Source: a virus
Strand: one strand, 5' to 3'
Virus record (IMG/VR): IMGVR_UViG_3300045988_120991
Span: 32,001-96,000 of that record
DNA length: 64,000 nucleotides
Part shown: one piece after another, positions 2,636 through 24,471 of the stretch
Position numbering within the stretch: position 1 is the stretch's first letter
Layout: each line of letters starts with the position of its first letter
Translations under genes and position numbers: made by a program
The notes under the pieces: generated by a model
Told to the model about the DNA's origin: nothing
Database searches by the model: none
Seen by the model: only the letters and a program-made list of their open reading frames with translations

Positions 2636-3178
2636 TTGGCAAATCAAGATTCAACTTTTGCAACTATTATAATTGGTGTTAAGCATAATAGATTATCTGT
2701 AGTGAGAAGTGCTATTGGAACGAGTGGAATTATTGACACATTAATGTGCAAATTTGAATTTAGAACCACCGATTGGGCTGGCATTCAAAAGATGGCAGTA
2801 TTTCAGAGCATGAGTGATTATGTAAAGCATAAAGATGAAAATAAAGTTATTGTTCCATTAAATGAGCAAGGGGAATGTTATGTTCCTGCCGATGTTATGA
2901 CTGGCCAAGGAGAATTTTTAATTGGTGTATTTGGTGTATATGATAACAATAGTAGAATCGTTTCAAACTTTTTGGCATTTAAATGTGATAAAGGCTGTTA
3001 TTGCATTGGATCTACACCTGGTGGCACTACTCCCAGTGATTATGCAGAAATTATTGCTTTAATAGATAAAAAGCAGGATGTATTAATTCCCGGTGATGGA
3101 ATAAGCATTGATGAAAATAATGTAATAAGTTGTACTTGCGAAATTACACTAATAAACGGAGGTGACAGCAATGAGTAA
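2636..3178 (+). CDS. hypothetical virion-module protein (180 aa)
   Basis: TTG start 7-8 nt after GGGAGGTGGTG. The stop overlaps the start of the next fibre gene. Function unknown. Confidence 0.5.
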   Translation: MANQDSTFATIIIGVKHNRLSVVRSAIGTSGIIDTLMCKFEFRTTDWAGIQKMAVFQSMSDYVKHKDENKVIVPLNEQGECYVPADVMTGQGEFLIGVFGVYDNNSRIVSNFLAFKCDKGCYCIGSTPGGTTPSDYAEIIALIDKKQDVLIPGDGISIDENNVISCTCEITLINGGDSNE

Positions 3179-3719
3179 GACATTGAATAATGTTAGAATT
3201 CAACTCAGAAATGATACCGCCACCAATTGGCAAAATTCCACTGTGGTGCTACTGCCTGGTGAATTTGCCGTAGAAAATGATACTGGTTTATTCAAAATTG
3301 GTAATGGAACTGATGTTTTTAAGGATTTAAAATATGCAAATAAGGCTGGAGAAACTTCTCAAGAGCTGGAGAATTTAAAAGCTCAAATTGGTGATATTCC
3401 AGAAGGAAAAACCATAATCAAAATGATTGAGGAAGCGGCTTATGACGATACTACATTGTCCGGCAAAGTAACTGTAAATGAACAGGCGATTGCCTCTTTG
3501 AATAGCAAAATGGACAATATTGAGGCTGGTTCTGTAACATCCGTGAATGGTAAAACTGGCGAGGTTACTATTGCAGCCTCAGATTTAATTAAGTCTTCTT
3601 CTGACACAAATAAAATATCTATTGCTGAAGATGGAACACTTGAAGTTAATTCACTGACTTTTGATAAAATTATGCAATCAGAAGGCGATGAAATTATTCT
3701 TTCTGGTGGCGGAGCCTAA
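3171..3719 (+). CDS. fibre-like protein with Mtd_N/HylP-type N-terminal domain
   Basis: The ORF track starts at GTG 3162. ATG 3171 is preferred because it lies 6 nt after GGAGGTG and overlaps the upstream stop (ATGAGTAA). The N-terminus RIQLRNDTATNWQNSTVVLLPGEFAVENDTGLFKIGNGTDVF fits the R-x-D-T-x-x-N-W ... GE ... DT ... KIGDG pattern of phage fibre N-terminal domains. A coiled-coil-like middle follows. Confidence 0.7.
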   Translation: MSKTLNNVRIQLRNDTATNWQNSTVVLLPGEFAVENDTGLFKIGNGTDVFKDLKYANKAGETSQELENLKAQIGDIPEGKTIIKMIEEAAYDDTTLSGKVTVNEQAIASLNSKMDNIEAGSVTSVNGKTGEVTIAASDLIKSSSDTNKISIAEDGTLEVNSLTFDKIMQSEGDEIILSGGGA

Positions 3720-3743
3720 TTTTTAAAGGAGGGTTTTATTCAT

Positions 3744-5006
3744 ATGGCGACTAAAACACTAAATACGAGAATTATTATGAGAAACGACACCGCAGAGAAT
3801 TGGACTACTAAGAATCCAACTCTATCAAAGGGCGAATTTGGTGTCGAAAATGATACTAACAAGTTTAAGATTGGTGACGGAGCTACTGCATGGAAGGAAC
3901 TAGCCTATGCTGGTGCAGATGAAACCGTTATCAAATCTATTATTAACGCAAACCGCGACGCCTGTACTTATGTTGACTTAACCGAAGGGCAGGAAGATGC
4001 AGATGGCCTAGCCACTATCACATCTCCAAAACAGGGTGATACCGCTATTGTTCGCAAGGCCATTGATGATACTCATAAGTCTTATACTGCTTATGTTTAT
4101 ACTGGTACAGCTTGGTCTGCCATGGATGGCAACTATAATGCAGATAATGTCTATCTTGATATGGATATCACTATGGCTGGTAACTATACTCAGGTTGGTA
4201 ACTTAACCAAAACTCAGAATGGTACAGCTACTTTTGCCACGAAAGGCAAGTCTATTGCTGCGGCTCTAACCGACATTTTCTCTAAGCGTCTACAGCCCGG
4301 TACTCCTACCGCTCCTGCAGTAGCTCTAACTTTCGGTCAGGCTAAGGCTTACGAAGTTGGTACTACTGTATCTCCTTCTTATTCTGCTACTCTAAGCGCA
4401 GGTTCTTATACCTATGGCCCTGCTACTGGTATTACTGCCACTTCTTGGGAGATTACTGATACTGCCGGAAATACTGCGGATACTGCTACTGGTTCTTTTG
4501 CTGATGTAGTCGTTGCTGATAATACCAATTATAAAATTACTGCAAAGGCTAATTATGGTGAAGGTACAGTTGCTAAGGATAACTTAGGTTCTGATTCTAA
4601 TCCTGTAGTCAAGATTGCCGCTGGTTCTGCCACTAAGACTTCTGGTGCTATTACAGGTTATCGTAATACTTTCTATGGCACTGTAGCTGAAAAAGCTGAA
4701 GTTACTAGCACTATTATTCGTGGACTGTCTGGTAAATCTAATGCAGCATGGTCAAATGGTAAGTCTTTTACTGTTAATATTCCTGTTGGCGCAGTTCGTG
4801 TAATTTTTGCATATCCCGCTACTCTACAGGATGTCAGCTCTGTAAAGGACGTAAATGGCCTAAACGCTGAGATTAAGAGCGCTTTCACCAAGTCTGCGGT
4901 AACTGTAGCTGGTGCCGGTGCTGATGCTGGTATTGAATATAAGGTATATGTAACTGACTTTGCAGAACCTGTTGCAAAGGCTAATTCTTATACGGTGAAA
5001 ATCTGA
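3744..5006 (+). CDS. fibre/receptor-binding-like protein with Mtd_N/HylP-type N-terminal domain (420 aa)
   Basis: AGGAGG RBS. The N-terminus RIIMRNDTAENWTTKNPTLSKGEFGVENDTNKFKIGDGATAW is paralogous to the 3171, 6364 and 16983 genes. The remainder is Thr/Ala/Gly-rich and beta-like. Confidence 0.7.
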   Translation: MATKTLNTRIIMRNDTAENWTTKNPTLSKGEFGVENDTNKFKIGDGATAWKELAYAGADETVIKSIINANRDACTYVDLTEGQEDADGLATITSPKQGDTAIVRKAIDDTHKSYTAYVYTGTAWSAMDGNYNADNVYLDMDITMAGNYTQVGNLTKTQNGTATFATKGKSIAAALTDIFSKRLQPGTPTAPAVALTFGQAKAYEVGTTVSPSYSATLSAGSYTYGPATGITATSWEITDTAGNTADTATGSFADVVVADNTNYKITAKANYGEGTVAKDNLGSDSNPVVKIAAGSATKTSGAITGYRNTFYGTVAEKAEVTSTIIRGLSGKSNAAWSNGKSFTVNIPVGAVRVIFAYPATLQDVSSVKDVNGLNAEIKSAFTKSAVTVAGAGADAGIEYKVYVTDFAEPVAKANSYTVKI

Positions 5007-5024
5007 TAAAGGAGGAGAAAGATT

Positions 5025-6329
5025 ATGGCTATGACTTTTGGTACACTTGATTTTGCTGTTGCTTTTAACCGCCAGACGGCTTTCCCTCTGGATGCTAAAA
5101 GCTATTTTGAAAGCTTAGAACTTGCTACCACCGCCGCTGCTTCCGCACAAGAGGCTGGTAGTTCTGAAACTACTTATTATTTTGGTCAGACTATTGCTGT
5201 TGTTGAGGGTGGTAAGGCTACTCTTTATGTAATTCAACCTGATAAGACTCTGAAAGAGGTTGGAGGAAATATTCTTATCAATGAGAATGTTTTTGCCAAG
5301 GACGAAAATGGTGTTTTGAATCTACTTGGTTTTGCCGATGCAGTTGGTGGCGCTCAGTTAGTAAAGACTGAAGACGGTAAGATTTCTTGGGTTAAACCAG
5401 ATACCACTACCGTTGAAGGTCTATCTACTGCTATCGAGTCACTAAAGACTGTTGTTGGTGATGATAAAGGTGGTCTTGTAAAGCAGGTTTCTGACAACAA
5501 GGCAGCTATTGATACACTTAATGGTGACAAAACTGTATCTGGTTCTGTCGCTTATCAGATTGCACAGATTGTTGCCGATGCAGATGAGAGTTTTGATACT
5601 CTAAAAGAAATCGCAGATTGGATTACGACTCATAAGACCGATGCGGCTACAATGAATTCTCAGATTAACACCAACAAGGATGATATTTCAGCTTTAAAAA
5701 CAAAAGTTGGTGATACTTCTGTCGCAGATCAAATTGACGCTGCTCTAAAAGATGGTGATAGCAATAAGTATGCACTAAGCTCTGACTTAGATACTGCTAA
5801 TGGCAAGATTACTTCCCTACAGGAACTAGTTGGAGAAACAAAGGTTGAAACTCAGATTTCTACCGCACTTGACTCTGCTCTAAAGGTCGACGGTGCTGAA
5901 AAGTATGCACCAGCTTCTCACACTCATGAGATTGCTAATGTCACTGGTCTTCAGGGTGTACTTGATGGCAAGGCCTCTGCCTCTGATGTAGAGGCACTAC
6001 AATCTGACGTTGATGGATTAAAGGCTAAGGCCCATGAACACGCCAACAAGACTGTTCTTGACGGTATTACTGAGGATAAGGTTAATTCTTGGGATGCCGC
6101 TCAGCCCAACGTTATCGAGTCTATCAAGATTGGCGGAGCCGCTCTAACTGTTGGTGCAGATAAGGCCGTAAGTATTCCTGCTGCAACTGCTGAGGCTCTT
6201 GGTCTTGTTAAGGCCGACGGAGCGACCATTGAGTCCACCGACGGTGTACTCAGTGTTAAGGCTGTTGGCATTAGCAAGGTCTTCGTCGAGGATGGCGTTG
6301 AGCTTGTTATGGACGGCGGTAATGCTTAA
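5025..6329 (+). CDS. fibre-like coiled-coil protein (434 aa)
   Basis: AAGGAGG RBS. Ala/Thr/Val/Asp-rich composition with long heptad-like stretches and one HxH motif (SHTHE). Sits between fibre paralogues. Confidence 0.6.
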   Translation: MAMTFGTLDFAVAFNRQTAFPLDAKSYFESLELATTAAASAQEAGSSETTYYFGQTIAVVEGGKATLYVIQPDKTLKEVGGNILINENVFAKDENGVLNLLGFADAVGGAQLVKTEDGKISWVKPDTTTVEGLSTAIESLKTVVGDDKGGLVKQVSDNKAAIDTLNGDKTVSGSVAYQIAQIVADADESFDTLKEIADWITTHKTDAATMNSQINTNKDDISALKTKVGDTSVADQIDAALKDGDSNKYALSSDLDTANGKITSLQELVGETKVETQISTALDSALKVDGAEKYAPASHTHEIANVTGLQGVLDGKASASDVEALQSDVDGLKAKAHEHANKTVLDGITEDKVNSWDAAQPNVIESIKIGGAALTVGADKAVSIPAATAEALGLVKADGATIESTDGVLSVKAVGISKVFVEDGVELVMDGGNA

Positions 6330-6363
6330 TTATTATTTTATGATTTAAAGGAGATTGACATAT

Positions 6364-7881
6364 ATGGCTAATAAGACTTTTAATACACGTATTAAGAACA
6401 AAATTGATACTTATGCGAATTGGATTGATAAAGATCCTGTCCTGCTTAATGGTGAAATTGCCGTTGTAGTTATCCCTGCCGAAACTGGTGCTGTACAGGG
6501 CGAACCTGTTACTCTATTTAAGGTCGGTGACGGCACTAAGAACTTTAGCCAGCTAGAGTTTACTGGTGCAAAGGCTGCTGATGTTTATGGTTGGGCTAAG
6601 GCTGCTACCAAGCCAACGTATTCTGCTACCGAAATTACTGGTCTAGAAGCTTATATTGGTGAGAAGATTCAGGATACTGATACCCAGTATAAGCTAGAGG
6701 CTGATGCTGAAGATGGCCACAAGTTCTATCTATATTCCAAAGCCAAGGGTGATGAGGCTTTTGGTACTACGCCTGTAAGCACTATCACTATTCCTGAGAC
6801 TGTATATACTCTAGCTACTGGTACTGCCAATGGTACTGTTAAGTTTAATGGCGAGGATGTAGCTGTTAAGGGTCTAGGCTCTGCTGCTTATACCGACTCT
6901 ACTGCTTATGATACTAAGGGTGCCGCTCAGACCGCAGAAGACAATGCTAAGGCTTATGCTGACGGCAAAGACACTGCTATTGCAGCAGCTAAGAAGGCCG
7001 GCACTGATGCTCAGGATACTGTTAACGCTCTATCTGGTAAGGTGGGCACAGTCCCTGAAAACAAGACTGTTGTTGAAATGATTTCTGATGCTCAGGCTGC
7101 TGCAACTTATAATGATACCGAGGTTAAGGCCGGCATCAAGGCCAATGCTGATGCTATTACTAAGCTAAATGGCACTTCTGCAGTTGAAGGTTCTGTTGAT
7201 AAGAAGGTGGCAGACGCTATTAATGAGTTTGCTACTAAGGTTAGCGATGACCAGACTGTTAACACCTTTAAGGAGCTAATTGATTATGCCGCTGACCATA
7301 AGGACGAGTATAGCACTCTGTCTGGCGAAGTTCAGGCTAACAAGACTGCTATTGCCACTCTAAACGGCAAAGATACTGACGCTGGTTCTGTAGCAAAGAC
7401 TGTTAAGGATGCCGTTGATGCCGCACAGGCTACCCTTCAGGGCAACATTGACAAGAAGGTTGACAAGGTAGAAGGTAAGGGTCTATCTACCAATGATTAT
7501 ACCACTGACGAGAAGACCAAGCTAGAAGGCATCGCCTCTGGTGCTCAGGCCAACGTCATTGAGACTGTTAAGGTTAATGGTGTTGCACTAACTCCTGCCG
7601 ACAAAGCTGTTGACGTTACTGTTCCTACTGGTACTCTTGCTAGTAAGGATAAGGTTGCCGAAACCGACCTTGTAGACACTCTTGCTACAAAGATCAATGG
7701 TAAGCTAGATGCTTCTGAGGTTACTGGGGACCTTCTGACTCATAACGCTTCTGAGTTTGCTACCGCTGATCATAACCATGACACCGTTTATTCTAAGCTA
7801 GACCACAATCATAAGATTGAGGATCTAGAGCAGAGCGCTTATATTATTTTCGACTGTGGTACTGCTAGTACCATTATCTAA
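6364..7881 (+). CDS. fibre protein with Mtd_N/HylP-type N-terminal domain (505 aa)
   Basis: ATG 6364 is preferred over the track's TTG 6355. The N-terminus ANKTFNTRIKNKIDTYANW...GEIAV...FKVGDGTKNF is paralogous to 16983. Contains the GKGLSTNDYTTDEKTKLEGI motif (7474-7548) common in phage fibres, and HxH motifs DHNHD and DHNHK near the C-terminus. Confidence 0.75.
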   Translation: MANKTFNTRIKNKIDTYANWIDKDPVLLNGEIAVVVIPAETGAVQGEPVTLFKVGDGTKNFSQLEFTGAKAADVYGWAKAATKPTYSATEITGLEAYIGEKIQDTDTQYKLEADAEDGHKFYLYSKAKGDEAFGTTPVSTITIPETVYTLATGTANGTVKFNGEDVAVKGLGSAAYTDSTAYDTKGAAQTAEDNAKAYADGKDTAIAAAKKAGTDAQDTVNALSGKVGTVPENKTVVEMISDAQAAATYNDTEVKAGIKANADAITKLNGTSAVEGSVDKKVADAINEFATKVSDDQTVNTFKELIDYAADHKDEYSTLSGEVQANKTAIATLNGKDTDAGSVAKTVKDAVDAAQATLQGNIDKKVDKVEGKGLSTNDYTTDEKTKLEGIASGAQANVIETVKVNGVALTPADKAVDVTVPTGTLASKDKVAETDLVDTLATKINGKLDASEVTGDLLTHNASEFATADHNHDTVYSKLDHNHKIEDLEQSAYIIFDCGTASTII

Positions 7882-7917
7882 GTGGCATTGCCTCTTCACA
7901 TTAAGTAGTTTATTTAA

Positions 7918-7949
7918 TAGGAGGGGCATTACACCTCTCCTATTTTTTT
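7918..7949 (+). terminator. rho-independent terminator
   Basis: TAGGAGGGG...CCTCTCCTA hairpin followed by T7 (7943-7949). Confidence 0.65.
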
Positions 7950-7976
7950 AGACTATACAAGGAGGAATGAAAACTA

Positions 7977-10900
7977 ATGGCCTATATAAATAAAGTTACT
8001 GTTAGAGGCAGAACATACAATTTAGAGAATCTAACGGATGGTACTCACATTGTTAGATTGCCTACTTTAAGTGGAGATGATGTTTTTGTTACAGAAAAGA
8101 CATTACAAACCGGTGTAAAAGCATCTGAGCTTACTGATGGTACTCATACTGTTAGTTTGCCAAAAAATTTAACAAAAGATGATACATTCGTTCTACAAAG
8201 CGCACAAGATAAGGTTAATAACACTAAGGTTGATAAGGTGAATGGCAAGGGATTATCGACCAATGACTATACTACTCCAGAAAAGAATAAACTTTCTGGT
8301 ATTGAAGATGGAGCCAATAAATATATTCACCCTATCTATAACGCAAGAGTATCTGGTCTATATAAAATTACAGTTGATAGTACCGGTCATGTTAGTGATG
8401 TAAGCGAGGTTACAAAGGACGACATTACTGGCCTTGGTATAACTGATGGTACGGATGCAGTTACTCAGGCTAACGCATATACGAATAAGACTATTTCTGA
8501 ATATGAACCTTATTCTATTGAAGTTGTAGACACGCTACCAGAGTCTGGTGAAGACAGAACATTCTATCTTGTTCCTAACGAGTCTAAGACTGGTTATACG
8601 AAATACTGGTGGATTACTGACAATGGTGAACAAAAGTGGGATGAGTTTAAGGGTGCTTCTACTGTAGTTGTGACCGAACTTCCAACAACTGGTGAGAAAG
8701 AAACAGACTATATCCTACATTCTGATGCAGGATGTTTTTATTACAAATGGATTGACAACGAATGGAAGATGGTTGCAGGAACCGTTGCCCATATTGTAAA
8801 TGAATTACCACAGATCGGAAACGAATATTCAGATTACTATGTGAAAAACACCGATGATTCATATGTACATTATCGTTATATTGACGGTGCATTCTGCATA
8901 ATTGGTGGAGACACATATAACAAAACACAAGTAGATAATAAAATTTCAACATTAAAGACTGATATTGATTCAAATACAACAAACATTACTTCTCTAAGCC
9001 GCACAGTTGATGGTATCAGACAAGATTTGGATAGTCTAGATACAGAGGGTTATACTTACTACGCTACTTATGGCAATGCTACTCTTGCGACTGGAGACGA
9101 AGCAGAAAACGTATTTACACTTTATGAAGTTAAAAATGAAAAAGAAGAAGTTAAAAGTCAGTTTGTAATTACTGGTGGAGGTGGCGGAGGCACTACAACC
9201 ACTACTCTTAAGGTTGAGCGTATTACCGAGTCCCCCATTATTGTCACAACAACTGACAAAGTAGAAATAAGCTTCAACTATTCTTCAACAGATAGCGATG
9301 GAGAGTCAGTTGATGGTACTTGTACTTGGAAACTCGGAAATACCGTTCTATCCACTGGAGCATTAGTTCAGGGTGTTAATACTTTTGACATGACTGAACA
9401 TGTGAATATTGGCACTCAAAAATTTGTTTTAACAGTTGTGGACGCCGCTGGTAGTGTTGCAGTTAAATCTTGGACTGTGCAAAAGGTTGATGTCAGACTT
9501 GAATCTTCATTTAGCGACAAGATTGCATATGAAGCTAACAAGTCTGTGAACTTTACATATACACCATATGGTGCAATAAACAAAACTGTGCATTTTGTTC
9601 TTGATGGGGCTGAAATAGGGACTGTTGCTACAAGTTCATCTGGTACACTACAGTCTTATACACTCCCAGCTCAAGAACACGGAGCACATTTACTTGAGTG
9701 CTACATTACCGCAACGATTAACGGAAAGAGTGTTGAAACGGATCATATATTTAAGGATATAATTTGGTATGATGAAAATAGTGAGACCCCCGTCATTGGT
9801 TGTGTTTATAGATATGACCACTATGGCAAGGTGGAGGCTAAGCAGTATAACTCTACAAACATTCCATTCTATGTATTTGATCCAAAGACAGAAACACCAA
9901 CTATTACGAGAAGTGTTGACGGGAAGGTTATCGCAACTCAAACTATGTCTGGAACATCAGATGTTTGGGCGTATAAATCTTCTGATATTGGTGAACATAC
10001 GCTTACTATTACTTGTAAGAGTACAACACTAACGATTGTAATGGACATTAAGGAACTTGGCATTACTATTGAGCCAATTACTGCTAATCTCGCATTTGAC
10101 TTTAACCCAACTGGTCTATCGAACAGTGATGAAGACAGACTATGGAAAGATAATAGCACGAATGTCACTATGACTGTTTCTGATAATTTCGACTGGTCGA
10201 ATGGTGGTTATCAGATTGATAGTGATGGAAATCAATATTTCTGTGTAAAAGCTGGAACGACTGCGACTATTAATTATAACCTATTTGAGAGAGATGCAAA
10301 CACTTATGGTTCTGAGTTTAAGTGCATTTTTAAGACTACGAATGTTAGAAAAGCAAACGCAACGTTTTTGACTTGTCAAGCAGACTCTACCGTTGTTGGT
10401 CTGGAAATGAATGTTCATGAGGCATATTTGAGGTCCAGTATTAAGAGTCTGTATATTCCTTATAGTGAGGAAGATGTTATTGAGTTTGAGTTTAACATTA
10501 ACTCACTCGATAAAGATAATCCAGACGCAACGGCTATTATTATGAGTTATGAGGACGGTGTTGGCTTAAGACCAATGATTTATGATTCTACTCATAGGTT
10601 GTATCAGTACGAGCCTGTACCTATTACTATTGGCTCTACAGATTGTGATGTTCATATTTATCGTATGAAAGCTTATACTTCTGCTCTGACTGATTCTAAC
10701 ATTCTTTCTAACTTTATTGCAGATGCCAGAGATTCTGATGAAATGATTGCAAGATATAACCGTAATCAGATTTATGATGAAAACAATGCTTTAACTCCTG
10801 AATCTGTAGCAAATGCTTGTCCTCAGTTGAGGGTCATTAAGATTGAGTGTCCACACTTTACTAATGATAAGAAAGACTATGTTAAGGGAACGAATGTTGA

Positions 10901-15679: not shown

Positions 15680-15696
15680 TTATAAGAAGAAACACT

Positions 15697-15727
15697 AACG
15701 AGAGGTGCTTATGTGCCTCTCGTTTTT
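15697..15727 (+). terminator. rho-independent terminator
   Basis: AACGAGAGG (15697-15705) pairs with CCTCTCGTT (15716-15724) and runs into TTTTT. The ORF-track start at GTG 15713 lies inside this hairpin. Confidence 0.7.
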
Positions 15728-16982: not shown

Positions 16983-17864
16983 GTGGCAAACAAGACATTT
17001 AATACCCGCATTAAGAATAAGCGGGATACGAGTGCGAACTGGACTAGCAAAGACCCTGTTTTGTTAGATGGCGAACTCATTATTGTTGACACAGCAAGTG
17101 GTGAAGTGAGATTTAAAATTGGTGATGGCACTAAGAAGTACTCACAGTTGCCATTCCAAGATGAGATTTTAAGAAATTCAAAAGTAGATTTGGACGCTGG
17201 TGTATATACTGCTACTGCTTCAAGCACTGATGGTATAGCATATTCTGCTACTGTTCCCGGTATTACTGCTTTAACCGCTGGCGCTAGTTTTATTATGATT
17301 CCAAATAAAGCAAGTACAAGCAAGGCACCAACATTAAATGTTAACGGATTAGGCGCAAAGCCAATTAGGCGCAGACTAAGCTCTCTAACAACTAGCTTAC
17401 AGCAAGGATATAGTACTAACTGGATTGCCCTCAATAAGCCGTTTATTGTAGTATATGATGGTATAGCATGGGTTGTTGAAGGTCTGACAAAAACTGATGG
17501 TGCAGATGTGTATGGAGCGGTTGCACAAGCTACGGCAGATGCGAACGGAAACAACATTGCAAAGACATATGCTACGATTGTTATGCTGCAAAGTCTGTTG
17601 CCAAAGGTCACAACAATTACACTGACATCTAATTGGGTTGGAGGTGCAAGCCCATATTATCAGGATGTTGCACTAAGTTGTGTAACAGAGACAAGCATTG
17701 TTGATTTGCAGCCAACGCCAGAGCAGCTTAACTCTTGGCAGGATGATGGGATTGCATTTACAACTTTGAGCGGAAATGGTACTGTGCGTGTTTATGTAGC
17801 TGGCGGTAAGCCAAGCAGCGCAATTTCAGTACAAGTTAGAGTACAGGAGGTGACAGTTATATGA
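16983..17864 (+). CDS. fibre/receptor-binding-like protein with Mtd_N/HylP-type N-terminal domain (293 aa)
   Basis: GTG 16983 lies 7 nt after AAGGAGG. The N-terminus ANKTFNTRIKNKRDTSANWTSKDPVLLDGELIIVDTASGEVRFKIGDGTKKY matches the paralogue family. The long antisense ORF 16934-17611 is a shadow ORF. Confidence 0.7.
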   Translation: MANKTFNTRIKNKRDTSANWTSKDPVLLDGELIIVDTASGEVRFKIGDGTKKYSQLPFQDEILRNSKVDLDAGVYTATASSTDGIAYSATVPGITALTAGASFIMIPNKASTSKAPTLNVNGLGAKPIRRRLSSLTTSLQQGYSTNWIALNKPFIVVYDGIAWVVEGLTKTDGADVYGAVAQATADANGNNIAKTYATIVMLQSLLPKVTTITLTSNWVGGASPYYQDVALSCVTETSIVDLQPTPEQLNSWQDDGIAFTTLSGNGTVRVYVAGGKPSSAISVQVRVQEVTVI

Positions 17865-18061
17865 GTGGTTTATACGGAAATGTATGTGGAGGATTTGGTA
17901 ATCCCAAGACATATGTTTTAACAGATAAAAACGGAAAAGAAATCACTGGTGTTCTAGTTGATAATTTGACTGTCTTTACCGCTACCCCTGAAGATGTTCG
18001 TTTTGGTAAGGTGTTTGCCGGAGATGAAGGCGTAAAGACAGGAACGAATACGTCAATTTAA
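17861..18061 (+). CDS. small fibre-associated protein (66 aa)
   Basis: ATGA overlap with the upstream stop. TATPEDVRFGKVFAGDEGVKTGTN resembles the SDATATANDILAGMTAYTAEGKTTGT module of the 23860 gene. Confidence 0.45.
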   Translation: MSGLYGNVCGGFGNPKTYVLTDKNGKEITGVLVDNLTVFTATPEDVRFGKVFAGDEGVKTGTNTSI

Positions 18062-18110
18062 TAAATTGTTAAACTAATGATAAAGCTTTATTTTAAGGGA
18101 GGAATTTTTT

Positions 18111-19805
18111 ATGCCTAATGGCGATTTTGAGCCTATGTATTCTACTAATAACATATGGTACGATACTTATACAGCGCAGTGCCTCACAAATCATCTTGAA
18201 GATATGGAGGCAGATATTGATACATTACAAACCGGCAAAGCAAATGTAAATCATACGCATAACGAATATTCTCCAATTAACCATGAGCATTCTGAATATG
18301 CTCTGGTAAATCATTCTCATACTGGATATGCTCTTATTGGACATACCCATAGTTATAATGACTTAGAAGATAAGCCAGTTATCCCGACTACTCTTCCTGC
18401 GAATGGCGGCAATTCCGATACTGTAGATGGCAAACATGCCGCAGATTTTGCGACTGTGGAATCAGTAGATATGCTTCAAACCCTTGTTGGAAGTACTAGT
18501 GTCCAGTCTCAGATATCAACTGCAGTTGGTACTATAACTCCGACTAGTATTGGTGCAGCAGAAGAAGATCATGTTCATAACTATAACGATTTAACGAATA
18601 AGCCAACTTCACTCCCGGCTAATGGTGGAAATGCGGACACCGTGGATGGTAAACACGCAAATGACTTTGCCACCGCCGAATCAATGAGTGCCATGGAAAC
18701 TTTAGTTGGCAGCACAAGCGTACAATCGCAGATATCTAACGCAATTGATAATCATACACATAGTTATAATAATCTGACAGATAAACCAACGTCATTGCCA
18801 GCAAACGGAGGCAACGCAGATACAGTAGATGGTAAACATGCTAGTGATTTTGCAACATCTGCTGATATTACCATGCTTCAAAATTTAGTTGGTGACACGG
18901 CTGTTCCTACGCAAATTAATAATGCTATCACTTCTGCCACTAGTGATTTGTCAGATACATATGCTACAAAAGCAAATCCTAAATTTGAAAATAGTATTAG
19001 TATGAATAGAGAAACATGGTCTACTGTCGGAACTAATAGTATTGCTATAGGAAATTATTGCCAAGCAAGTGGAAATTATTCTTATGCCGAAGGGTATTTT
19101 TCAAAAGCGACTACTTCGGAAAGCGTAACTCCAACTAGCTCAAATTCTTCAGATTTAGGGTATTGTTGTCATGCAGAAGGTTATTTTTCTGTAGCTCGTG
19201 GCGCAATTTCTCATGCGGAAGGTAATGGAACATTAGCATCAGGTGGCAATTCTCATTCTGAAGGTTGTAGTACTACTGCGAGTGGTGAATGTTCACATGC
19301 AGAAGGATATCATACTACAGCATCTGGAAAGAATGCACACGCAGAAGGTATTTCAACAAAGGCGACCGGGGATTATACTCATGCCGAAGGGTATTATAGT
19401 GAAGCTACAAAGAATTATGCACACGCGGAAGGATGCCAGACTGTAGCGAGTGGCACATCATCACATGCAGAAGGGGCGAACACAATTGCTTCTGGGTATC
19501 ATTCTCACGCGGAGGGTGATGAAACAATTGCACAAACCTTAAGCCAACATGTAGAGGGTGCATATAATATACCGGATTCAGGAGGCAGTGTGTCTAGATA
19601 TGGTAAATATCTTCATATTGCTGGTAATGGTTCTAATTTGGCTCGTTCCAATGCTTACACTCTAGATTGGGATGGCAATGGTTGGTTTGCAGGAACTATT
19701 GAGGGGACGGCTATGATTTTAAAATCTTCAACACCAAATAGCACAAAACGATTTAAAATCACTGTTGACGATAGTGGCGCTATAAGTACGACAGAGATAA
19801 ATTAA
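18111..19805 (+). CDS. repeat-rich fibre protein (564 aa) with HxH repeats and YadA-head-like HAEG repeats
   Basis: GGGAGG RBS. Contains four NH.H..Y..[IV] decapeptides, three 62-75 aa modules (LPANGGN.DTVDGKHA.DFAT...LVG.T.V..QI), and eight 14-aa repeats centred on [ST]HAEG. The C-terminus reads AYTLDWDGNGWFAG. Confidence 0.8.
   Translation: MPNGDFEPMYSTNNIWYDTYTAQCLTNHLEDMEADIDTLQTGKANVNHTHNEYSPINHEHSEYALVNHSHTGYALIGHTHSYNDLEDKPVIPTTLPANGGNSDTVDGKHAADFATVESVDMLQTLVGSTSVQSQISTAVGTITPTSIGAAEEDHVHNYNDLTNKPTSLPANGGNADTVDGKHANDFATAESMSAMETLVGSTSVQSQISNAIDNHTHSYNNLTDKPTSLPANGGNADTVDGKHASDFATSADITMLQNLVGDTAVPTQINNAITSATSDLSDTYATKANPKFENSISMNRETWSTVGTNSIAIGNYCQASGNYSYAEGYFSKATTSESVTPTSSNSSDLGYCCHAEGYFSVARGAISHAEGNGTLASGGNSHSEGCSTTASGECSHAEGYHTTASGKNAHAEGISTKATGDYTHAEGYYSEATKNYAHAEGCQTVASGTSSHAEGANTIASGYHSHAEGDETIAQTLSQHVEGAYNIPDSGGSVSRYGKYLHIAGNGSNLARSNAYTLDWDGNGWFAGTIEGTAMILKSSTPNSTKRFKITVDDSGAISTTEIN
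18249..18368 (+). repeat. 4 x 30-nt in-frame HxH decapeptide repeats
   Basis: NHTHNEYSPI / NHEHSEYALV / NHSHTGYALI / GHTHSYNDLE, read directly from the translation. Confidence 0.8.
18349..18950 (+). repeat. 3 tandem divergent protein modules (225, 186 and about 190 nt)
   Basis: H.YN.L..KP..LPANGGN.DTVDGKHA.DFAT......L..LVG.T.V..QI occurs three times, starting at 18349, 18574 and 18760. Confidence 0.8.
19165..19530 (+). repeat. about 8 x 42-nt in-frame HAEG repeats
   Basis: SHAEGNGTLASGGN / SHSEGCSTTASGEC / SHAEGYHTTASGKN / AHAEGISTKATGDY / THAEGYYSEATKNY / AHAEGCQTVASGTS / SHAEGANTIASGYH / SHAEGDETIA. Confidence 0.8.
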
Positions 19806-19811
19806 GTACAC

Positions 19812-19838
19812 GGGCGGAGCCAATAACTCCGCCCTTTT
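19812..19838 (+). terminator. rho-independent terminator
   Basis: GGGCGGAG (19812-19819) / CTCCGCCC (19827-19834) followed by TTTT. Confidence 0.7.
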
Positions 19839-19869
19839 AAATATTAAAAATAAGGAGGATGATGTAAAA

Positions 19870-20622
19870 GTGTCAACAAAGAAATTACAGATAGTAACTC
19901 CTATCGTGACATCTGTCAACGGCGAGACAGGTGATGTAGAATTAAATAGCCTAAAAAACCCGAACGCACTAACTTTTACTGGCGGAGTAACTGGCACTTA
20001 TGATGGTTCTTCTGCTAAAACAGTTGCAATTCCAGTGGTTGATTCTGCGTTGTCAACTACGTCTACCAATGCTATTCAAAATAAAGCCGTAAAAACTGCT
20101 CTTGATGGAAAAGCAAACTCTACCCATACTCACGATGAATATCTATCTCACCCAATTCAGCTCCAAGAAACTACCGACTATGGTTCAACCTTACCATCAA
20201 ACCCAACTAACGGTCGTCTATTTTTTCAAGAGACTTCTGTTACGAGTTTAATTGATTTAGTTTATCCTGTTGGTGCAGTATATATCTCAATGAATCAGAC
20301 TTCGCCACAGACACTATTTGGTGGTACTTGGACTCAAATTCAGGGAAGATTCCTAATTGGTGCGGGGACCGCTTATCCTGCTGGTTCAACTGGCGGCGAA
20401 GCAACACACACGTTAACAAAAGATGAAATTCCAGACCACACACATAGCTTCAAATATACTGGGCAATCTGCAACAACTGGTGTTAATGCCATTCGTTTGT
20501 ATCAGGCGGCATCTAACCAGTATAATGCTTATTCTGGCGGCCAGTCATCCAACTGTGGTGGCCAAGCACATAACAACCTTCCTCCATATATGGCAGTCTA
20601 CATGTGGACGAGAACTGCTTAA
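19870..20622 (+). CDS. tail-collar-domain fibre protein (250 aa)
   Basis: GTG start after AAGGAGG. VYPVGAVYISMNQTSPQTLFGGTWTQIQGRFLIGAG...GGEATHTLTKDEIPDHTHSF matches the phage tail collar (MdpB-like) domain pattern. The N-terminal module LKNPNALTFTGGVTGTYDGSSAKTVAIP...STNAIQNKAVKTALDGK is shared with the 21464 gene. Confidence 0.75.
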   Translation: MSTKKLQIVTPIVTSVNGETGDVELNSLKNPNALTFTGGVTGTYDGSSAKTVAIPVVDSALSTTSTNAIQNKAVKTALDGKANSTHTHDEYLSHPIQLQETTDYGSTLPSNPTNGRLFFQETSVTSLIDLVYPVGAVYISMNQTSPQTLFGGTWTQIQGRFLIGAGTAYPAGSTGGEATHTLTKDEIPDHTHSFKYTGQSATTGVNAIRLYQAASNQYNAYSGGQSSNCGGQAHNNLPPYMAVYMWTRTA

Positions 20623-20636
20623 GGAGGTGCATTTAA

Positions 20637-21446
20637 ATGGCAACCTCTGGATATTTTGACGGTGCAAAATCTACATATGGATGGTATTTAAGGCTTGAAT
20701 ATAATGTAGTATCTTCAACATCTGTTAATTTGACGTTGAAGATTTATGATGGTACTGGTGAGTCACATAATAATAATGCAAATAGTTGCTATTATGTTAT
20801 TCAAGGTACGAAAACATACAAAACCTATAGCTATTCTTCAAAGGGCTGGTACACTTTAGGAAGTAAGACCGTTTCTGTTAGTACTTCTACTACGAACTTA
20901 GATATATCTGCTTCTTGGCATAGTGGATTTACGAGCCAATGGACCCCAGAATCACTAAGTGTTTCTGGTACAATTACTGTCAACTCTGCTCCTAAGACAA
21001 TATCAGTTACGAGTTTGAGCGACTGGTCGGGATATGAAAATACTTCAAAGACATTTAGTGTAACAGCTTCTGGAGGTACATCTTATACTTATCAGTGGTA
21101 TTTCAATGGAACAGCTATATCTAATGCAACTTCACGTACTTATACGAGGACCATTAAATATAGTGATGGTGAGGGGCAAATTTATTGCAAAGTTACTGAT
21201 ACTAGTGGTGCGGTGGCGATAACAAATAGAGCAACCCTATATGTTGGACTTGCTTCAAGCAAAAATAAAATTGAAGTTGAGCCAGTTAGTATGGTAGAAA
21301 TAAAAAATTCAAGTGGTTTCACAAAATATATTCCTTGGGTTTATAAAAATGGGACTTGGACTATTTATAGATGGAACGTTCTTGAAGGAACCACTACGGA
21401 AGCGGTTGCTGATTTAGCGGTTGCTGATATAGCTATAGCAACTTAA
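20637..21446 (+). CDS. structural protein with Ig-like domain (269 aa)
   Basis: AAGGAGGTG RBS. The N-terminal part resembles DUF859-type siphovirus proteins (a weak, memory-based call). YQWYFNGTAISNATSRTYT is a typical Ig-like (I-set) strand pattern. Confidence 0.55.
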   Translation: MATSGYFDGAKSTYGWYLRLEYNVVSSTSVNLTLKIYDGTGESHNNNANSCYYVIQGTKTYKTYSYSSKGWYTLGSKTVSVSTSTTNLDISASWHSGFTSQWTPESLSVSGTITVNSAPKTISVTSLSDWSGYENTSKTFSVTASGGTSYTYQWYFNGTAISNATSRTYTRTIKYSDGEGQIYCKVTDTSGAVAITNRATLYVGLASSKNKIEVEPVSMVEIKNSSGFTKYIPWVYKNGTWTIYRWNVLEGTTTEAVADLAVADIAIAT

Positions 21447-21463
21447 AAGGAGGAGATGAATAA

Positions 21464-23860
21464 ATGGCTCTTTCAAAAAGAACTTATGTGGGCGGCACCA
21501 CAAAAATTACTGCCGCAAACTTAAATGATATACAAGATTCGATTATTGCTCTTGAAGATAAGGGTATTACAAAAGAAGAAGTTGTTGATGCATTGGAATA
21601 TACACCTGCAAAAGCTAGTGATATTCCAACTACTGATATTTCTGCTAATACGGCGGCGAGACATTCCCATAGCAATAAGGATGTTTTAGATAATATAACT
21701 GAAATCGCAAGTATTTCTGGTGGATCAGTTACTGGTGGTGTTAATGCGCTTGTTACAAAAGAGGTGCTAGATTCTACTAGTCAACTGATTATGGATGAGA
21801 TCCCATCCGAGTTGAAGAATCCGTATGCACTTACTTTTACCGGTGCATCCTCTGGAACGTATGATGGTTCAAGTGCGGTTACGATAAATATTCCAAGTGG
21901 TGACACTGGAGGAACAGCAGTTACTGTTGACTCGGACTTATCTTCCACATCAACGAATCCAGTCCAAAACAAAGTTATAAAGTCTGCGCTCGATGAGAAG
22001 CTGTCTACCTCTGGTGGTACTTTGACTGGTAACTTAACTGGTAAATATATAGCTGGTACTTGGCTTCAGACTACTGAGGCAACTGAGCTTTCGACGACTC
22101 CAACGAAGATTCCTGTTTTAGATTCTAAAGGATGGATTTACTATAGAACCTTGGAGCATTTTAAGAGTGACCTTGGAGCGAATTGTTTTATAAATGTTAA
22201 GGATTATGGGGCAACAGGTAATGGTACAACTGATGATACAGAAGCGATTCAATCAGCTCTTGATGCTTCAAACACCAAGGGGATCCCATATGTCCGCTTT
22301 CCATCTGGGACTTATAAAATTAGTGCCACATCTACTGATAATAATTTTTATACTGCACTAAATTTATATTCTGGACAACATCTTATTTTTGACCAAGTTA
22401 CTTTACAACTGACTGCTAACAGTTATGATTTTTATGCAATTATAAATATTCACAATATAAGTAATGTTGAATTATCTGGTAATTTGACAATTATTGGTGA
22501 CAGAGAATCTCATACTGGAACAACTGGAGAAAGTGGTCACGGTATCCGTATTGTCAATAGTAAGAATGTATATGTTCATGATATAAATGTACAACATACT
22601 TGGGGTGACGGCGTATGCGTAGGCGGCAACGGGACCATGGATGAGATTTCTAAAAATGTGACCATTGAACGTGTGCAAACATATAAGTGTAGTAGAAATG
22701 GATTATCTATTATTGAAGCACAAGACGTCGTTGTGCGAGATTGCGATTTTTCTTACACCGACCGCACAAATCCTCAATATGGCATTGATATAGAACCGAA
22801 TCTTGGGACTGCCACAAATATTCTGATTGAAAATGTTAGGATGCTGAATAATGGCGTTGGTTCTTTTACATTGTACGTCAAGAAAGCCACCATGCCAGGA
22901 ACTATTGCATTAAGAAATATTGAAACCGATAGTAAAACGAATATTTACACAAGCAGCGATTCCGGTGCGACGTTCGATGTGTCTGTTATTGGTTGGAAAC
23001 ATACTCAGAAATCAACAGTAACCTCATCAAACAGTCCTACGCTTCGTCTTAGCGGTACGGGTAATCTAAAAGTTGACCAATTAACAGTTGTAAACAATAG
23101 TTCAAGAACCGTAATATATCCATACAATGCGAAGAATATTTACATTACGGGTATTAAAGTTATTGACGATCCAAGTGTAAGTACTGCGGGTACTTTATCT
23201 ATTCAATCTTCAGCCGACGTTTCTATAGATAGCGTCATTATTGATGGATTTCTTAGTAGAAATCCTCATGAAGTAACGTGGCATTCAGGTAATAGTATTG
23301 TGGTAAATAATACTCAAGATACCAATGTGAACTTAAATAGCCATCTGACCACAGGCGGCAGTAACGAGAGTTACAAGTTACTGCTGTGCGATAAAACACT
23401 GGTGCTGGGTACTGCCCTCAGTGCAAAGGCTCGTGTATTCATACCGTATACCTATGGCAACGTGAACCCATTCCGAGTGGTGAATACCACGGCCACTGAG
23501 ATACAGCTATATACCACGGTGTCGGCAGGCATTACGTTTGTAGGCGACGTACCCGGCGGTAGTTCGGCCAACTCCGCCGCACTGACAGGAAACGCCAGCT
23601 ATGAGGTCACGCCCATGCTGGTCAACGGTCTGGTGTATGTACGGAAGCTAAATACCCGTGTGCCCGTCAAGACCTCCGAAATCACCAACGACAGCGGGTA
23701 CCAGACAGCAGCACAAGTGGAATCCACCGTGACAGGCAAGGGCTACCAGACGGTGGAACAGGTGGAATCAACAGTGACAGCTAAGGGCTACCAGACAGCA
23801 GCACAGGTCGGCGCCGCTATCACGGCGGCCATCGGCGCAGCAATGGAGGCGAGTTATTAA
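21464..23860 (+). CDS. tailspike-like protein with right-handed beta-helix (pectate-lyase-3-like) depolymerase domain (798 aa)
   Basis: AAGGAGG RBS. INVKDYGATGNGTTDDTEAIQSALDAS is the characteristic N-cap of pectate_lyase_3/tailspike beta-helices, followed by many hydrophobic-N/G-x turns. The C-terminal 173 codons have sharply higher GC and contain 3 x 15-aa GYQT..QV repeats. Confidence 0.8.
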   Translation: MALSKRTYVGGTTKITAANLNDIQDSIIALEDKGITKEEVVDALEYTPAKASDIPTTDISANTAARHSHSNKDVLDNITEIASISGGSVTGGVNALVTKEVLDSTSQLIMDEIPSELKNPYALTFTGASSGTYDGSSAVTINIPSGDTGGTAVTVDSDLSSTSTNPVQNKVIKSALDEKLSTSGGTLTGNLTGKYIAGTWLQTTEATELSTTPTKIPVLDSKGWIYYRTLEHFKSDLGANCFINVKDYGATGNGTTDDTEAIQSALDASNTKGIPYVRFPSGTYKISATSTDNNFYTALNLYSGQHLIFDQVTLQLTANSYDFYAIINIHNISNVELSGNLTIIGDRESHTGTTGESGHGIRIVNSKNVYVHDINVQHTWGDGVCVGGNGTMDEISKNVTIERVQTYKCSRNGLSIIEAQDVVVRDCDFSYTDRTNPQYGIDIEPNLGTATNILIENVRMLNNGVGSFTLYVKKATMPGTIALRNIETDSKTNIYTSSDSGATFDVSVIGWKHTQKSTVTSSNSPTLRLSGTGNLKVDQLTVVNNSSRTVIYPYNAKNIYITGIKVIDDPSVSTAGTLSIQSSADVSIDSVIIDGFLSRNPHEVTWHSGNSIVVNNTQDTNVNLNSHLTTGGSNESYKLLLCDKTLVLGTALSAKARVFIPYTYGNVNPFRVVNTTATEIQLYTTVSAGITFVGDVPGGSSANSAALTGNASYEVTPMLVNGLVYVRKLNTRVPVKTSEITNDSGYQTAAQVESTVTGKGYQTVEQVESTVTAKGYQTAAQVGAAITAAIGAAMEASY
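23696..23830 (+). repeat. 3 x 45-nt in-frame repeats
   Basis: GYQTAAQVESTVTGK / GYQTVEQVESTVTAK / GYQTAAQVGAAITAA. Confidence 0.85.
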
Positions 23861-24471
23861 TGGGAAAGTATAGCACACTAAGTGAGTTGTTTGCAGCGAT
23901 TGCTGATGCCATTAGAACCAAAACTGGTGGAGGGGCGGCTATTGTTGCCGAAAATTTTCCTACTGAGATTAAGAACATACCAACAGGAGGAGGCGTCAAT
24001 CCTTCTGATGCTACGGCAACTGCAAATGATATTCTGGCTGGTATGACAGCGTATACTGCTGAAGGAAAAACAACAGGCACATTACAAATAAGGATTGGCT
24101 CAATAGAATTAACTAAAGCCGTTACATCCTCTTCATATGTTACCATTTCTCATGATTTGGGAATAGTGCCAAGTATAATTCTTGCATATGTTGAGAATGA
24201 TCCTACTTTTGATTCAACTACCACATATAATATTGTAAGTGGATATGCAATCAATTTTCCCACCGGCCTTATTCCTGGAGTGGGAGCAAGTAAGTCAGCC
24301 GCGAATTGTATCAATAGTCAGGGTGGAGGGGCAGGCGACACTACCTCTAACAGTTCTACCGTTTGTATTTGTGACAAAATTACTGCTACTACATTTCGAC
24401 TCAGAGCAAGTGGTTCATCTAGATGCTGGTCTTCTGATGCGATTGTGAAGTACGTAGTTATGGCATTATAA
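23860..24471 (+). CDS. fibre-associated protein (203 aa)
   Basis: The ATG overlaps the upstream TAA by 1 nt (TTAATGG). The N-terminus LFAAIADAIRTKTGGGAAIVAENFPTEIKNI and ATANDILAGMTAYTAEGKTTGT match motifs recurrent in Firmicutes phage fibre-region proteins (memory-based). Confidence 0.5.
   Translation: MGKYSTLSELFAAIADAIRTKTGGGAAIVAENFPTEIKNIPTGGGVNPSDATATANDILAGMTAYTAEGKTTGTLQIRIGSIELTKAVTSSSYVTISHDLGIVPSIILAYVENDPTFDSTTTYNIVSGYAINFPTGLIPGVGASKSAANCINSQGGGAGDTTSNSSTVCICDKITATTFRLRASGSSRCWSSDAIVKYVVMAL

Follow-up and report, generated by a model that had tools for sequence, protein, structure and literature searches.

A 22-kb array of fibre, spike and adhesin genes arranged in four modules in an uncultured siphophage of the human gut

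We analysed a 64,000-nucleotide window of an uncultured virus (positions 32,001 to 96,000 of IMG/VR record IMGVR_UViG_3300045988_120991) and examined a dense run of genes for fibre-, spike- and adhesin-like proteins that lies near its start. A first-pass annotation, made from the letters alone, had reported about 14 consecutive genes between positions 3171 and 24471. Fourteen open reading frames (ORFs), here named f01 to f14, were found there on the plus strand, separated by -8 to 95 nt and with a coding density of 98%, and the run is extended upstream by a further gene, g04 (2636-3178). The array therefore comprises 15 same-strand genes between 2636 and 24471 (about 22 kb). It occupies the slot between the tail tube gene and the genes for lysis, the RuvC resolvase and the tape measure protein (TMP). 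Four starts were reset from the longest-ORF calls on the basis of N-terminal homology and the gene calls of the source contig: f01 at 3171 (182 aa), f04 at 6364 (505 aa), f07 at 15752 (389 aa) and f08 at a GTG codon at 16983 (293 aa). An alternative GTG for f07, at 15713, falls within a terminator stem.

Three hairpin terminators divide the array, close to the positions first proposed for them (7918, 15697 and 19812). They are located at 7916-7944 (11-bp stem and T-run), 15697-15724 (12-bp stem and T-run) and 19812-19834 (8-bp stem with seven GC pairs and a T-run), all on the plus strand. These are the three best-scoring of the 17 hairpin sites found, against 10.5 ± 3.2 expected in shuffled sequences, and the last one ranks at the top. 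The modules delimited in this way are g04-f01-f02-f03-f04 (module 1), f05-f06 (module 2), f07-f08-f09-f10 (module 3) and f11-f12-f13-f14 (module 4). Modules 1 to 3 each end at a hairpin terminator and module 4 ends at the lysis genes. Domain evidence was collected from Pfam, PHROGs, PDB sequence searches, NCBIfam, two AlphaFold models and Foldseek; NCBIfam, run on 19 window proteins including 17 array or neighbouring ORFs, added almost nothing.

Module 1 opens with g04, a short fibre-type protein of 180 aa that consists of an N-terminal anchor domain and a short tail, and whose gene overlaps the start of f01 by 8 nt. Its N-terminal domain of about 145 residues recurs at the start of 625 representative protein clusters, with lengths of 180-1396 aa, where the C-terminal parts behind it include LRR_5, collagen, YadA_head, Fibritin_C (foldon), GDSL esterase and PTR (phage tail repeats). 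Given that a single N-terminal domain heads so many different C-terminal parts, it behaves as a fibre anchor. The next protein, f01 (3171-3719), is a short fibre segment anchored by an Mtd_N domain (8.8e-11) and matching PHROG tail-fibre families. In f02 (3744-5006, 420 aa) an Mtd_N anchor (2.7e-10) is joined to a globular C-terminal domain, which is a candidate receptor-binding tip (phrog_35541, 3.4e-73, aa 93-418). This domain (aa 96-420) shares 44% identity with gp26 of the cultured Faecalibacterium phage FP_Brigit (9001-10029 of locus L047; compared loci carry labels beginning with L), and a search of f02 against PDB sequences found no relatives. The product of f03 (5025-6329, 434 aa) is weakly fibre-shaft-like, with a PTR match below the cut-off (5e-4), weak PHROG tail-fibre matches and segments in common with f04 and f10. 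Finally, f04 (6364-7881) carries an Mtd_N-type anchor with an insertion, followed by a long shaft; its N-terminus matches phrog_19976 and Pfam gives no match. The C-terminal 45 residues of f01 resemble the C-terminus of f03 (z = 8 against shuffles), and an Mtd_N-headed protein directly follows each of the two.

Module 2 is dominated by f05 (7977-14927), a giant multidomain adhesin-like fibre protein of 2316 aa, which matches phrog_14959 (1.7e-78) and carries DUF6273 at its C-terminus (2.7e-11) together with a weak Big_3_5 match. Leucine-rich repeat (LRR), Flg_new and LamG-like stretches were called by eye only. The N-terminus, which does not resemble a signal peptide by eye, recurs on the fibre f07. 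A domain with the CotH-kinase fold lies at about aa 1000-1470 (10974-12386). When ten segments of f05 were run against Pfam, this region matched CotH (PF08757) with an E-value of 3.7e-5 and 23.8 bits, which is exactly the gathering cut-off, and three f05 homologues carry the same family. For aa 1000-1560, an AlphaFold model that drew on 32 homologues had a pLDDT of 83.4 and a pTM of 0.87. Its only significant PDB fold matches in Foldseek were 5jda/5jd9, the CotH of B. cereus (E about 1.5e-6, probability 1.00, target-normalised TM 0.57). Neither f05 nor its kinase segment or profile found relatives among PDB sequences, and the link to CotH in the PDB was made by the fold search alone. In BFVD, the same fold occurs in proteins of about 1000-1300 aa from other phages, including gp353 of Bacillus phage G and a protein of a crAss-like phage (cr272_1), which are labelled spore coat protein, CotH kinase, LRR protein or DUF1566 protein. 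Within the f05 kinase-fold family, K1146, E1165, the stretch D1289-N-R-A-K-N1294 and D1315/D1317 are nearly invariant. The spacing of these residues is compatible with that of D228 and D251, the catalytic aspartates of B. subtilis CotH (PMC7821199), and f05 could be regarded as a putative kinase. The second gene of the module, f06 (14942-15679, 245 aa), encodes an accessory protein or chaperone candidate paired with f05; it matches phrog_1348 ('tail fiber protein', 5e-14) and, below the cut-off, DUF4376 (2.9e-4).

With regard to module 3, f07 (15752-16921) is a fibre that combines Phage_fiber_rpt repeats (3.2e-14) with the second class of N-terminus described below. The following gene, f08 (16983-17864), encodes an Mtd_N anchor (4.1e-6) with a C-terminal knob (phrog_19976, 1.3e-12), and f09 (17861-18061), with 66 aa and no family match, appears to be its small partner. 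The largest protein of the module is f10 (18111-19805, 564 aa), a fibre with HxH motifs, HAEG repeats, three repeats of about 70 aa and a YadA-like head, which matches phrog_25468 (5e-40). Its C-terminal half matches PDB sequences of trimeric-autotransporter heads, namely BpaC (3e-10) and CbpF; the NCBIfam matches to Ata and EmaA fall far under their cut-offs.

Module 4 begins with f11 (19870-20622, 250 aa), a short fibre with a tail-collar/Gp10_C C-terminal domain (2.3e-24). It is followed by f12 (20637-21446, 269 aa), a protein with a beta-sandwich and an immunoglobulin (Ig)-like domain. Many of its 148 homologue clusters carry Ig_2 or Ig_3, and also I-set; its AlphaFold model (pLDDT 83.5) retrieved tandem Ig domains in Foldseek, including chains from the capsid reconstructions of N4 and Moo19. 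The product of f13 (21464-23860, 798 aa) is tailspike-like, with a conserved N-terminal third, an exchangeable pectate-lyase-type beta-helix and three 15-aa repeats at its C-terminus. Both Pect-lyase_RHGA_epim (4.4e-12, 46.7 bits) and Beta_helix (26.1 bits) are above their cut-offs, and the best PDB sequence match is the crAss001 gp22 tail fibre (7qoj_J, 5.6e-18), besides glucanases and epimerases. With its beta-helix behind an N-terminal anchor, f13 has the architecture of a tailspike or depolymerase, and degradation of a glycan is predicted. The last gene, f14 (23860-24471, 203 aa), has weak PHROG matches and is a likely partner of the f13 C-terminal domain.

Two minor features concern the end of f13. 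The C-terminal repeats, GYQT(A/V)(A/E)QVES(T)VT..K, correspond to three tandem 45-nt units at 23696-23830, the only tandem repeat that TRF reported in 1-54500. Furthermore, 374 bp at 23342-23715 are the only stretch with a near-identical counterpart in deposited phage records, in MT835537 from human faeces.

These assignments agree in nearly all points with the composition first proposed for the region, which had included a 2,316-aa multidomain adhesin (f05), an HxH/HAEG repeat fibre (f10), a tail-collar fibre (f11), an Ig-domain protein (f12), a beta-helix tailspike (f13) and four 'Mtd_N/HylP-type' fibres. The last label has to be narrowed. Mtd_N was recovered, and HylP applies only as a common N-terminal module: the PHROG 'hyaluronidase' matches span only the first 60-120 residues or so, i.e. 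the anchor, and Pfam detected no hyaluronidase lyase domain. Profile searches assigned a clearly non-structural role to none of the products, the nearest exception being the CotH-kinase fold of f05, and the array is indeed a dense set of fibre, spike and adhesin genes.

An all-against-all BLASTP comparison of the array proteins revealed that a small number of pieces are used repeatedly. The Mtd_N-type N-terminus occurs four times. Mtd_N (PF18454) exceeds its gathering threshold of 26.3 bits in f01 (42), f02 (40.4) and f08 (27.1), and f04 is added by transitive homology, as its first 66 residues share 59% identity with those of f08 (E 2.6e-15); f01 and f02 share 56% identity over 55 aa. A second N-terminus, M(A/S)YIN...YNL..LTDG, is found in f05 and f07 (47.5% identity over 40 aa). 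A third module of 69 aa connects aa 26-85 of f11 with aa 115-183 of f13 (55% identity), and a 59-aa stretch links aa 363-419 of f04 to aa 82-140 of f05 (49% identity). N-terminal modules are thus common to several proteins, and a branching domain like that of T4 gp10 was not detected in the array apart from the C-terminal Gp10_C of f11.

We then compared related loci, which were anchored on exact copies of g00 (a conserved neighbour of the array), RuvC and f06 and supplemented by an IMG/VR scan with an f12 alignment. Comparison was by blastn bins, tblastn, ORF-level blastp and phmmer. Homologues of f11 and f12 were present in all 20 loci of the wider clade, and an endolysin gene follows the array in 15 of them; from these sequences, f11-f12 plus the endolysin form what appears to be the universal core. 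In close relatives, f12 is 87-100% conserved. The genes f01, f02 and f04 occur together in the main group of relatives and are absent together from L025, L030, L034 and L038, and of the three, a third group (L035-37, L042-44) has retained just an f02-like gene, beside an f03-like gene. The genes f05, f06 and f07 are confined to the lineage of the window, with L029 as the only wider-clade locus to carry them. The f10 region is either kept or represented by a different set of four genes. Judged from these alignments, genes are gained and lost in blocks whose limits match the three terminators, which gives four modules. Arrays of the wider clade, on contigs of 70-155 kb, have only about 5-8 genes, and the state with 15 genes is therefore best read as an expansion, specific to this lineage, of a mobile 'fibre + lysin' module. 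A recent foreign origin of the modules found no support, since the GC content at third codon positions (0.22-0.36 in the array) lies within the overall range of the phage.

Exchange also takes place within single genes, and the suggestion in the first-pass annotation that cassettes would be found swapped among related phages was borne out for whole modules and for the tips of f13. In L012, L015, L016, L017 and L020, the N-terminal 18-31% or so of f13 is retained at 87-99% identity and the remainder is exchanged. The products in this slot measure 798, 1402, 1393, 892, 598, 458+262, 294, 280, 194+409 and 194+271 aa among the relatives. Small ORFs follow their neighbours. Full-length f14, 99-100% identical, is found only where this particular beta-helix is kept (L013, L014, L018, L019), L017, which does not have it, retains only the first 28% of f14, and other relatives carry a different ORF of 162-164 aa. 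Similarly, f09 varies together with f08: where f08 is 97-100% identical, f09 is 97-100% identical as well, and where f08 falls to 78-79%, f09 falls to 58%. A 245-aa ORF corresponding to f06 follows the DUF6273 protein in all three relatives in which this junction is visible (L015, L017, L029). One further locus, L028 (IMGVR_UViG_3300045988_179162, 120 kb), combines an f12 that is 92% identical to that of the window with the small-array layout and has no RuvC or TMP gene after its endolysin; it indicates that parts of the array have recombined between the lineages of about 120 and 166 kb.

Taken together, we consider it reasonably probable that 2636-24471 is a host-adhesion array, encoding a modular and multivalent adsorption apparatus of an uncultured temperate siphophage of about 166 kb that infects Firmicutes of the human gut. 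The first-pass annotation had read the density of fibre genes as a sign of a branched or multivalent host-recognition apparatus, or of head/tail decoration; the dense fibre set stands, and 14 independent receptor-binding proteins are not what the organisation points to. Because the genes are gained and lost as four terminator-delimited units, the array probably specifies some four or five appendage types, or independent receptor-binders. The tail-tip fibre with an S74 domain, which is encoded downstream, comes in addition to the four appendage types of the array. Each module would build one kind of appendage from several proteins, namely an anchor, shaft segments, a distal tip with binding or enzymatic function, and a small cognate partner or chaperone. 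The anchors would be drawn from a limited stock of reusable N-termini (the g04-type domain, the Mtd_N beta-prism in four proteins, the 'YIN...YNL..LTDG' N-terminus in two and the 69-aa module of f11 and f13) and joined to a variety of distal parts. The latter would include the beta-helix glycan-degrading domain, the YadA-like head, the tail-collar domain, the Ig-like domain and the giant arm with its CotH fold, LRR-like region and DUF6273. The array evolves by two routes, the gain or loss of whole modules and the replacement of distal parts behind conserved anchors, and the outcome would be an apparatus capable of binding, and in part degrading, several distinct structures on the cell surface.

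Several observations weigh against this interpretation, and most of them favour an alternative in which some or most of the products would decorate the capsid, the neck or the long tail tube, as whiskers or head fibres adhering to mucus or glycans, and would take no part in triggering infection. The tail-tip genes of the phage are physically separate from the array, which directly follows the head and tube genes and is not linked to those for the distal tail protein (Dit) and the tail-associated lysin (Tal). In the wider clade it adjoins polynucleotide-kinase and RNA-ligase (RNA-repair) genes in place of any tail genes, so that synteny does not imply a baseplate location. The Ig-like domain of f12 is as close to the chains from phage capsid reconstructions as to anything tail-borne, and there are weak Hoc-like PHROG matches. 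The FP_Brigit homologue of the f02 tip is encoded between terL and portal, which is unusual for a fibre-tip-like domain. In addition, profile or structural evidence backs the majority of the 15 products, but it is weak in the case of f03 and f14 and lacking for f09; we infer incorporation into virions from homology alone, and joint display and the attachment sites of the products are likewise deduced. Nevertheless, beta-helix spikes, tail-collar, Phage_fiber_rpt and Mtd_N domains are typically tail-borne in characterised phages. Mtd itself is located at the ends of tail fibres (PMC2408619), the best match of f13 is a tail fibre, and rapid swapping of the f13 tips is the signature of a host-range determinant. 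We regard such decoration as unlikely, though less so than the other alternatives.

At the other extreme, all 14 or 15 products could be separate receptor-binding proteins displayed in parallel on one branched baseplate, as in the Klebsiella jumbo phages phiKp24, RaK2 and K64-1. The number of genes is close to that of the adsorption complexes of phiKp24 and the Alcyoneusvirus phages (PMC9700779, PMC10253068), f11 carries a Gp10_C domain, and the repeated N-terminal anchors could mean that several proteins use equivalent sockets. However, g04 (180 aa), f01 (182 aa) and f09 (66 aa) are too short or featureless to act as independent binders, and gain and loss proceed by multi-gene module and not gene by gene. 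The C-terminal motif common to f01 and f03, each directly followed by an Mtd_N protein, fits end-to-end joining, and no Gp10-type branching domain was detected beyond the C-terminal domain of f11 noted above. Such full branching appears rather improbable to us. Still somewhat less probable is a partly non-virion role, in which the terminator-flanked blocks would resemble morons, f05 would be an effector or surface protein benefiting the host or the phage, and f13 would be a soluble depolymerase freed at lysis. The f05-f06 block is flanked by terminators on both sides and is restricted to one lineage, and f05 combines a fold of the kinase type, in whose family Lys, Glu and Asp/Asn positions are nearly invariant, with distal domains resembling bacterial surface proteins. 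By contrast, its N-terminus is, judged by eye, unlike a signal peptide, its first 40 residues match the fibre f07 and its residues 82-140 match the fibre f04, and its gene is tightly packed on the same strand within the late structural run. Intergenic hairpins are also annotated throughout the late structural genes of SPbeta, so those of the array need not mean separate operons, and f13 keeps the conserved N-terminal anchor in common with f11.

It is also conceivable that only one or a few of these receptor-binders are made per virion, as alternative or diversified versions selected by DNA inversion or by a diversity-generating retroelement (DGR). Mtd_N takes its name from the DGR target of phage BPP-1 (PMC2408619), and DGRs of phages are known to target CotH-lectin fusions (PMC8008677). 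However, all array genes lie on one strand, and the C-terminus of f05 shows 100% identity in L015 and L017. Neither long inverted repeats nor an invertase were found in or near the array. Repeat searches of 1-27000 and a self-BLAST of the whole 64-kb window detected no template/variable repeat pair and no long inverted repeats, and no reverse transcriptase was matched among the window ORFs scanned against Pfam. DGR activity or phase variation was consequently rejected for the window, and we consider this explanation highly improbable for the array.

The favoured interpretation, a modular adsorption apparatus, can be compared with several known systems. In phiKp24 and in RaK2/K64-1 (Alcyoneusvirus), jumbo myophages of Klebsiella, multi-fibre adsorption complexes are hyperbranched (PMC9700779, PMC10253068). 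As in those phages, at least ten fibre or spike genes are consecutive, conserved N-terminal anchors carry distal parts that can be exchanged, one or more beta-helix enzymes are present and multivalent recognition is presumed. In contrast, the Klebsiella phages are virulent jumbo myoviruses of a capsulated Gram-negative host, whereas the phage studied here is a putatively temperate siphovirus whose hosts are probably Gram-positive Clostridia of the gut. Nearly all their arms are capsule depolymerases, whereas here a single clear beta-helix enzyme accompanies other tips that are non-enzymatic and adhesin-like, and the division into four terminator-delimited modules also sets this array apart.

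In terms of position, the closest parallel is SPbeta, in whose annotation yomS, yomR, yomQ and yomP (XepA-, XkdV-, XkdW- and XkdX-like, homologues of PBSX genes) lie between yomU (tube) and yomI (TMP). Both cases share the tube-to-TMP slot, a large siphophage (temperate in SPbeta and putatively so here), a fibre-like gene with small partners and hairpins among the late genes. The SPbeta slot, however, holds four small genes as opposed to 15 genes and 22 kb, and the lysis genes, which follow the tail-tip genes in SPbeta, are inside the slot here. The SPbeta structural and slot proteins showed no meaningful tblastn or phmmer similarity to the window, which speaks against membership of the genus Spbetavirus, and Pfam recognised only XkdX among ten SPbeta slot proteins. 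Given this absence of sequence similarity, the parallel is positional only. The phage would be distantly SPbeta-like at the profile level alone, through its head, connector and tube families. A literature search returned nothing useful on SPbeta virion structure or YomR function.

For modules 1 and 3, with their consecutive segment genes and small chaperone candidates alongside, the long tail fibre of T4 provides a model. There, the products of consecutive genes (gp34-gp35-gp36-gp37) join end to end with the aid of the chaperones gp38 and gp57A. The array has no sequence relationship to T4, and serial joining is suggested here by gene order, common C-terminal motifs and module co-occurrence. 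Among siphophages of Gram-positive hosts, TP901-1 and Tuc2009 (BppU-BppA-BppL) and 80alpha (FibL/FibU) attach multiple trimers of receptor-binding proteins through an N-terminal adaptor, encoded by 2-4 genes directly after Dit and Tal. The anchor-only architecture of g04 is reminiscent of such adaptors, whereas neither BppU nor a related Pfam family was detected in the array.

The Mtd_N domain that heads four of the array proteins recalls Mtd of BPP-1, whose trimers sit at the ends of the tail fibres (PMC2408619), and the N-terminal modules of HylP from streptococcal prophages. Unlike these, the array showed no C-type-lectin variable region behind its Mtd_N modules, no DGR signal and no hyaluronidase domain. 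Finally, f05 resembles the CotH proteins of other phages (CotH-lectin and CotH-LRR fusions, gp353 of phage G, cr272_1 of a crAss-like phage) in placing a CotH fold within a multidomain protein of more than 1000 aa that has an LRR-like region and a C-terminal DUF6273. It differs from them in being about twice as long, in its fibre-type N-terminus, in its location within a fibre array and in the lack of hypervariability or of a DGR partner in the window. CotH-lectin fusions of phages have been noted as unstudied (PMC8008677). A bolder proposal, which we put forward as distinctly doubtful, is that the 2,316-aa protein forms one of four co-displayed appendages, and that its CotH-type kinase would be catalytically active and phosphorylate host-surface molecules during adsorption. 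If true, this would be a form of enzymatic receptor engagement, beyond mere binding, that has been described for no phage.

Phages with multiple receptor-binding proteins and the modularity of anchors and tips are well known. What is new here is the scale of the array in a putatively temperate siphophage that probably infects Gram-positive bacteria of the gut, its four hairpin-bounded modules, its tube-to-TMP position together with the lysis cassette, its mostly non-enzymatic adhesin-type tips and its arm with a CotH fold. By gene content, the array appears to be among the largest host-attachment gene sets seen in a sipho-type phage, and very large fibre arsenals would thus not be confined to virulent jumbo myoviruses of capsulated Gram-negative bacteria. 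The chief gap in the understanding of gut phages concerns their host range, and host recognition by large temperate phages of gut Clostridia is almost uncharted. The arrays of this lineage grade naturally from the two-gene core up to 15 genes, and both the junctions between anchors and tips and the borders of the modules are clear. Such a series could help in forecasting host switches from metagenomic data and in engineering chimeric receptor-binding proteins for use on Gram-positive anaerobes. Phage proteins with the CotH fold also gain a concrete and testable structural context.

A 166,050-bp contig from a human-gut metagenome (ERZ918909 k127_90184) contains the window. A second sample yielded a 166,042-bp contig with identical genes that is broken inside the f05 gene; because of this break, the genome of about 166 kb is suggested to be complete and circularly permuted. 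The identical gene orders in these independent assemblies led us to reject an assembly artefact. The conserved neighbouring gene g00 has index entries in 232 collection blocks, with contigs of up to about 167 kb, and the lineage recurs across many human-gut assemblies. No close cultured relative was found. A megablast search of 50,697 phage records returned only the 374-bp match in f13, and tblastn with the tube protein gave no cultured-phage match. The endolysin type and its best matches, the similarity of the f02 C-terminal domain to FP_Brigit and one Faecalimonas bin suggest a Gram-positive host among the gut Clostridia (Firmicutes). A single genome scan returned two bins of metagenome-assembled genomes, one labelled 'Prevotella' and the other Faecalimonas, both of them stand-alone contigs of phage size.

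According to the ORF listing, the first 54.3 kb or so of the window carry plus-strand genes without interruption. Directly upstream of the array, precomputed Pfam matches identify the SPbeta-derived families YonD_N, YonB, YomW and YomU_Tube. The last of these (PF27173), recorded on an identical 260-aa product, marks the tail tube gene (1090-1872) as the upstream boundary of the array, although our own Pfam scan of the tube protein gave no match. The downstream boundary is the endolysin gene (24550-25560; Amidase_3, 1.2e-11; CW_7, 6.2e-45). It is followed by an 80-aa ORF and a holin candidate (25817-26149; Phage_holin_6_1, 5.4e-5, just under the cut-off), then by RuvC, two small ORFs and the TMP gene. 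A lysis cassette and RuvC are thereby placed amid the tail morphogenesis region (24550-27810), and the two unannotated ORFs (185 and 164 aa) occupy the slot of the tail assembly chaperones.

The TMP (27822-45929, 6035 aa) has a PhageMin_Tail match near aa 3740-3960 (1.2e-22). At about 0.15 nm of tail per TMP residue, the predicted tail would possibly measure about 0.9 micrometre, unless part of the protein serves another function; the TMP of P23-45, with its fused RNA polymerase, is an example of the latter. Among relatives in which RuvC is identical, the TMP measures 5759, 5483, 3339 or 3221 aa, and the region at about 29000-36500 has a counterpart in none of the compared relatives, whether their TMPs are short or long. 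No tandem DNA repeats were found in the TMP gene, and internal protein repeats are faint. Further downstream lies a conventional tail-tip module (45998-53784) with Dit (DUF6558), a putative Tal of 1630 aa and a fibre with DUF859 and Peptidase_S74. An S74 fibre had been expected downstream of the TMP, as had a repeat-expanded Tal; degenerate repeats of about 100 aa are indeed present at aa 484-890 of the latter, which is named Tal by position only. The earlier description of a temperate phage agrees with the presence of a tyrosine integrase gene on the minus strand (54577-55728; Phage_integrase, 4.7e-26), which gives the phage the potential for a temperate lifestyle. All contigs found were stand-alone, of about 110-167 kb, with no host flank visible.

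Nucleotide-metabolism genes accompany the integrase on the minus strand. Among them, the large subunit of ribonucleotide reductase is split over two ORFs (57260-61570) that are separated by a 235-aa ORF (58760-59467); the upstream half holds an intein in which a LAGLIDADG domain is present. Homing-endonuclease ORFs (GIY-YIG, HNH, LAGLIDADG) were also seen in relatives, upstream of the point corresponding to window position 1 in L004, L005, L006 and L008 and between the tube gene and g02 in L003, L005 and L008. In several relatives they interrupt or split the YonB-like capsid gene and the tube gene, which suggests intron- or intein-type invasion of structural genes in these phages.

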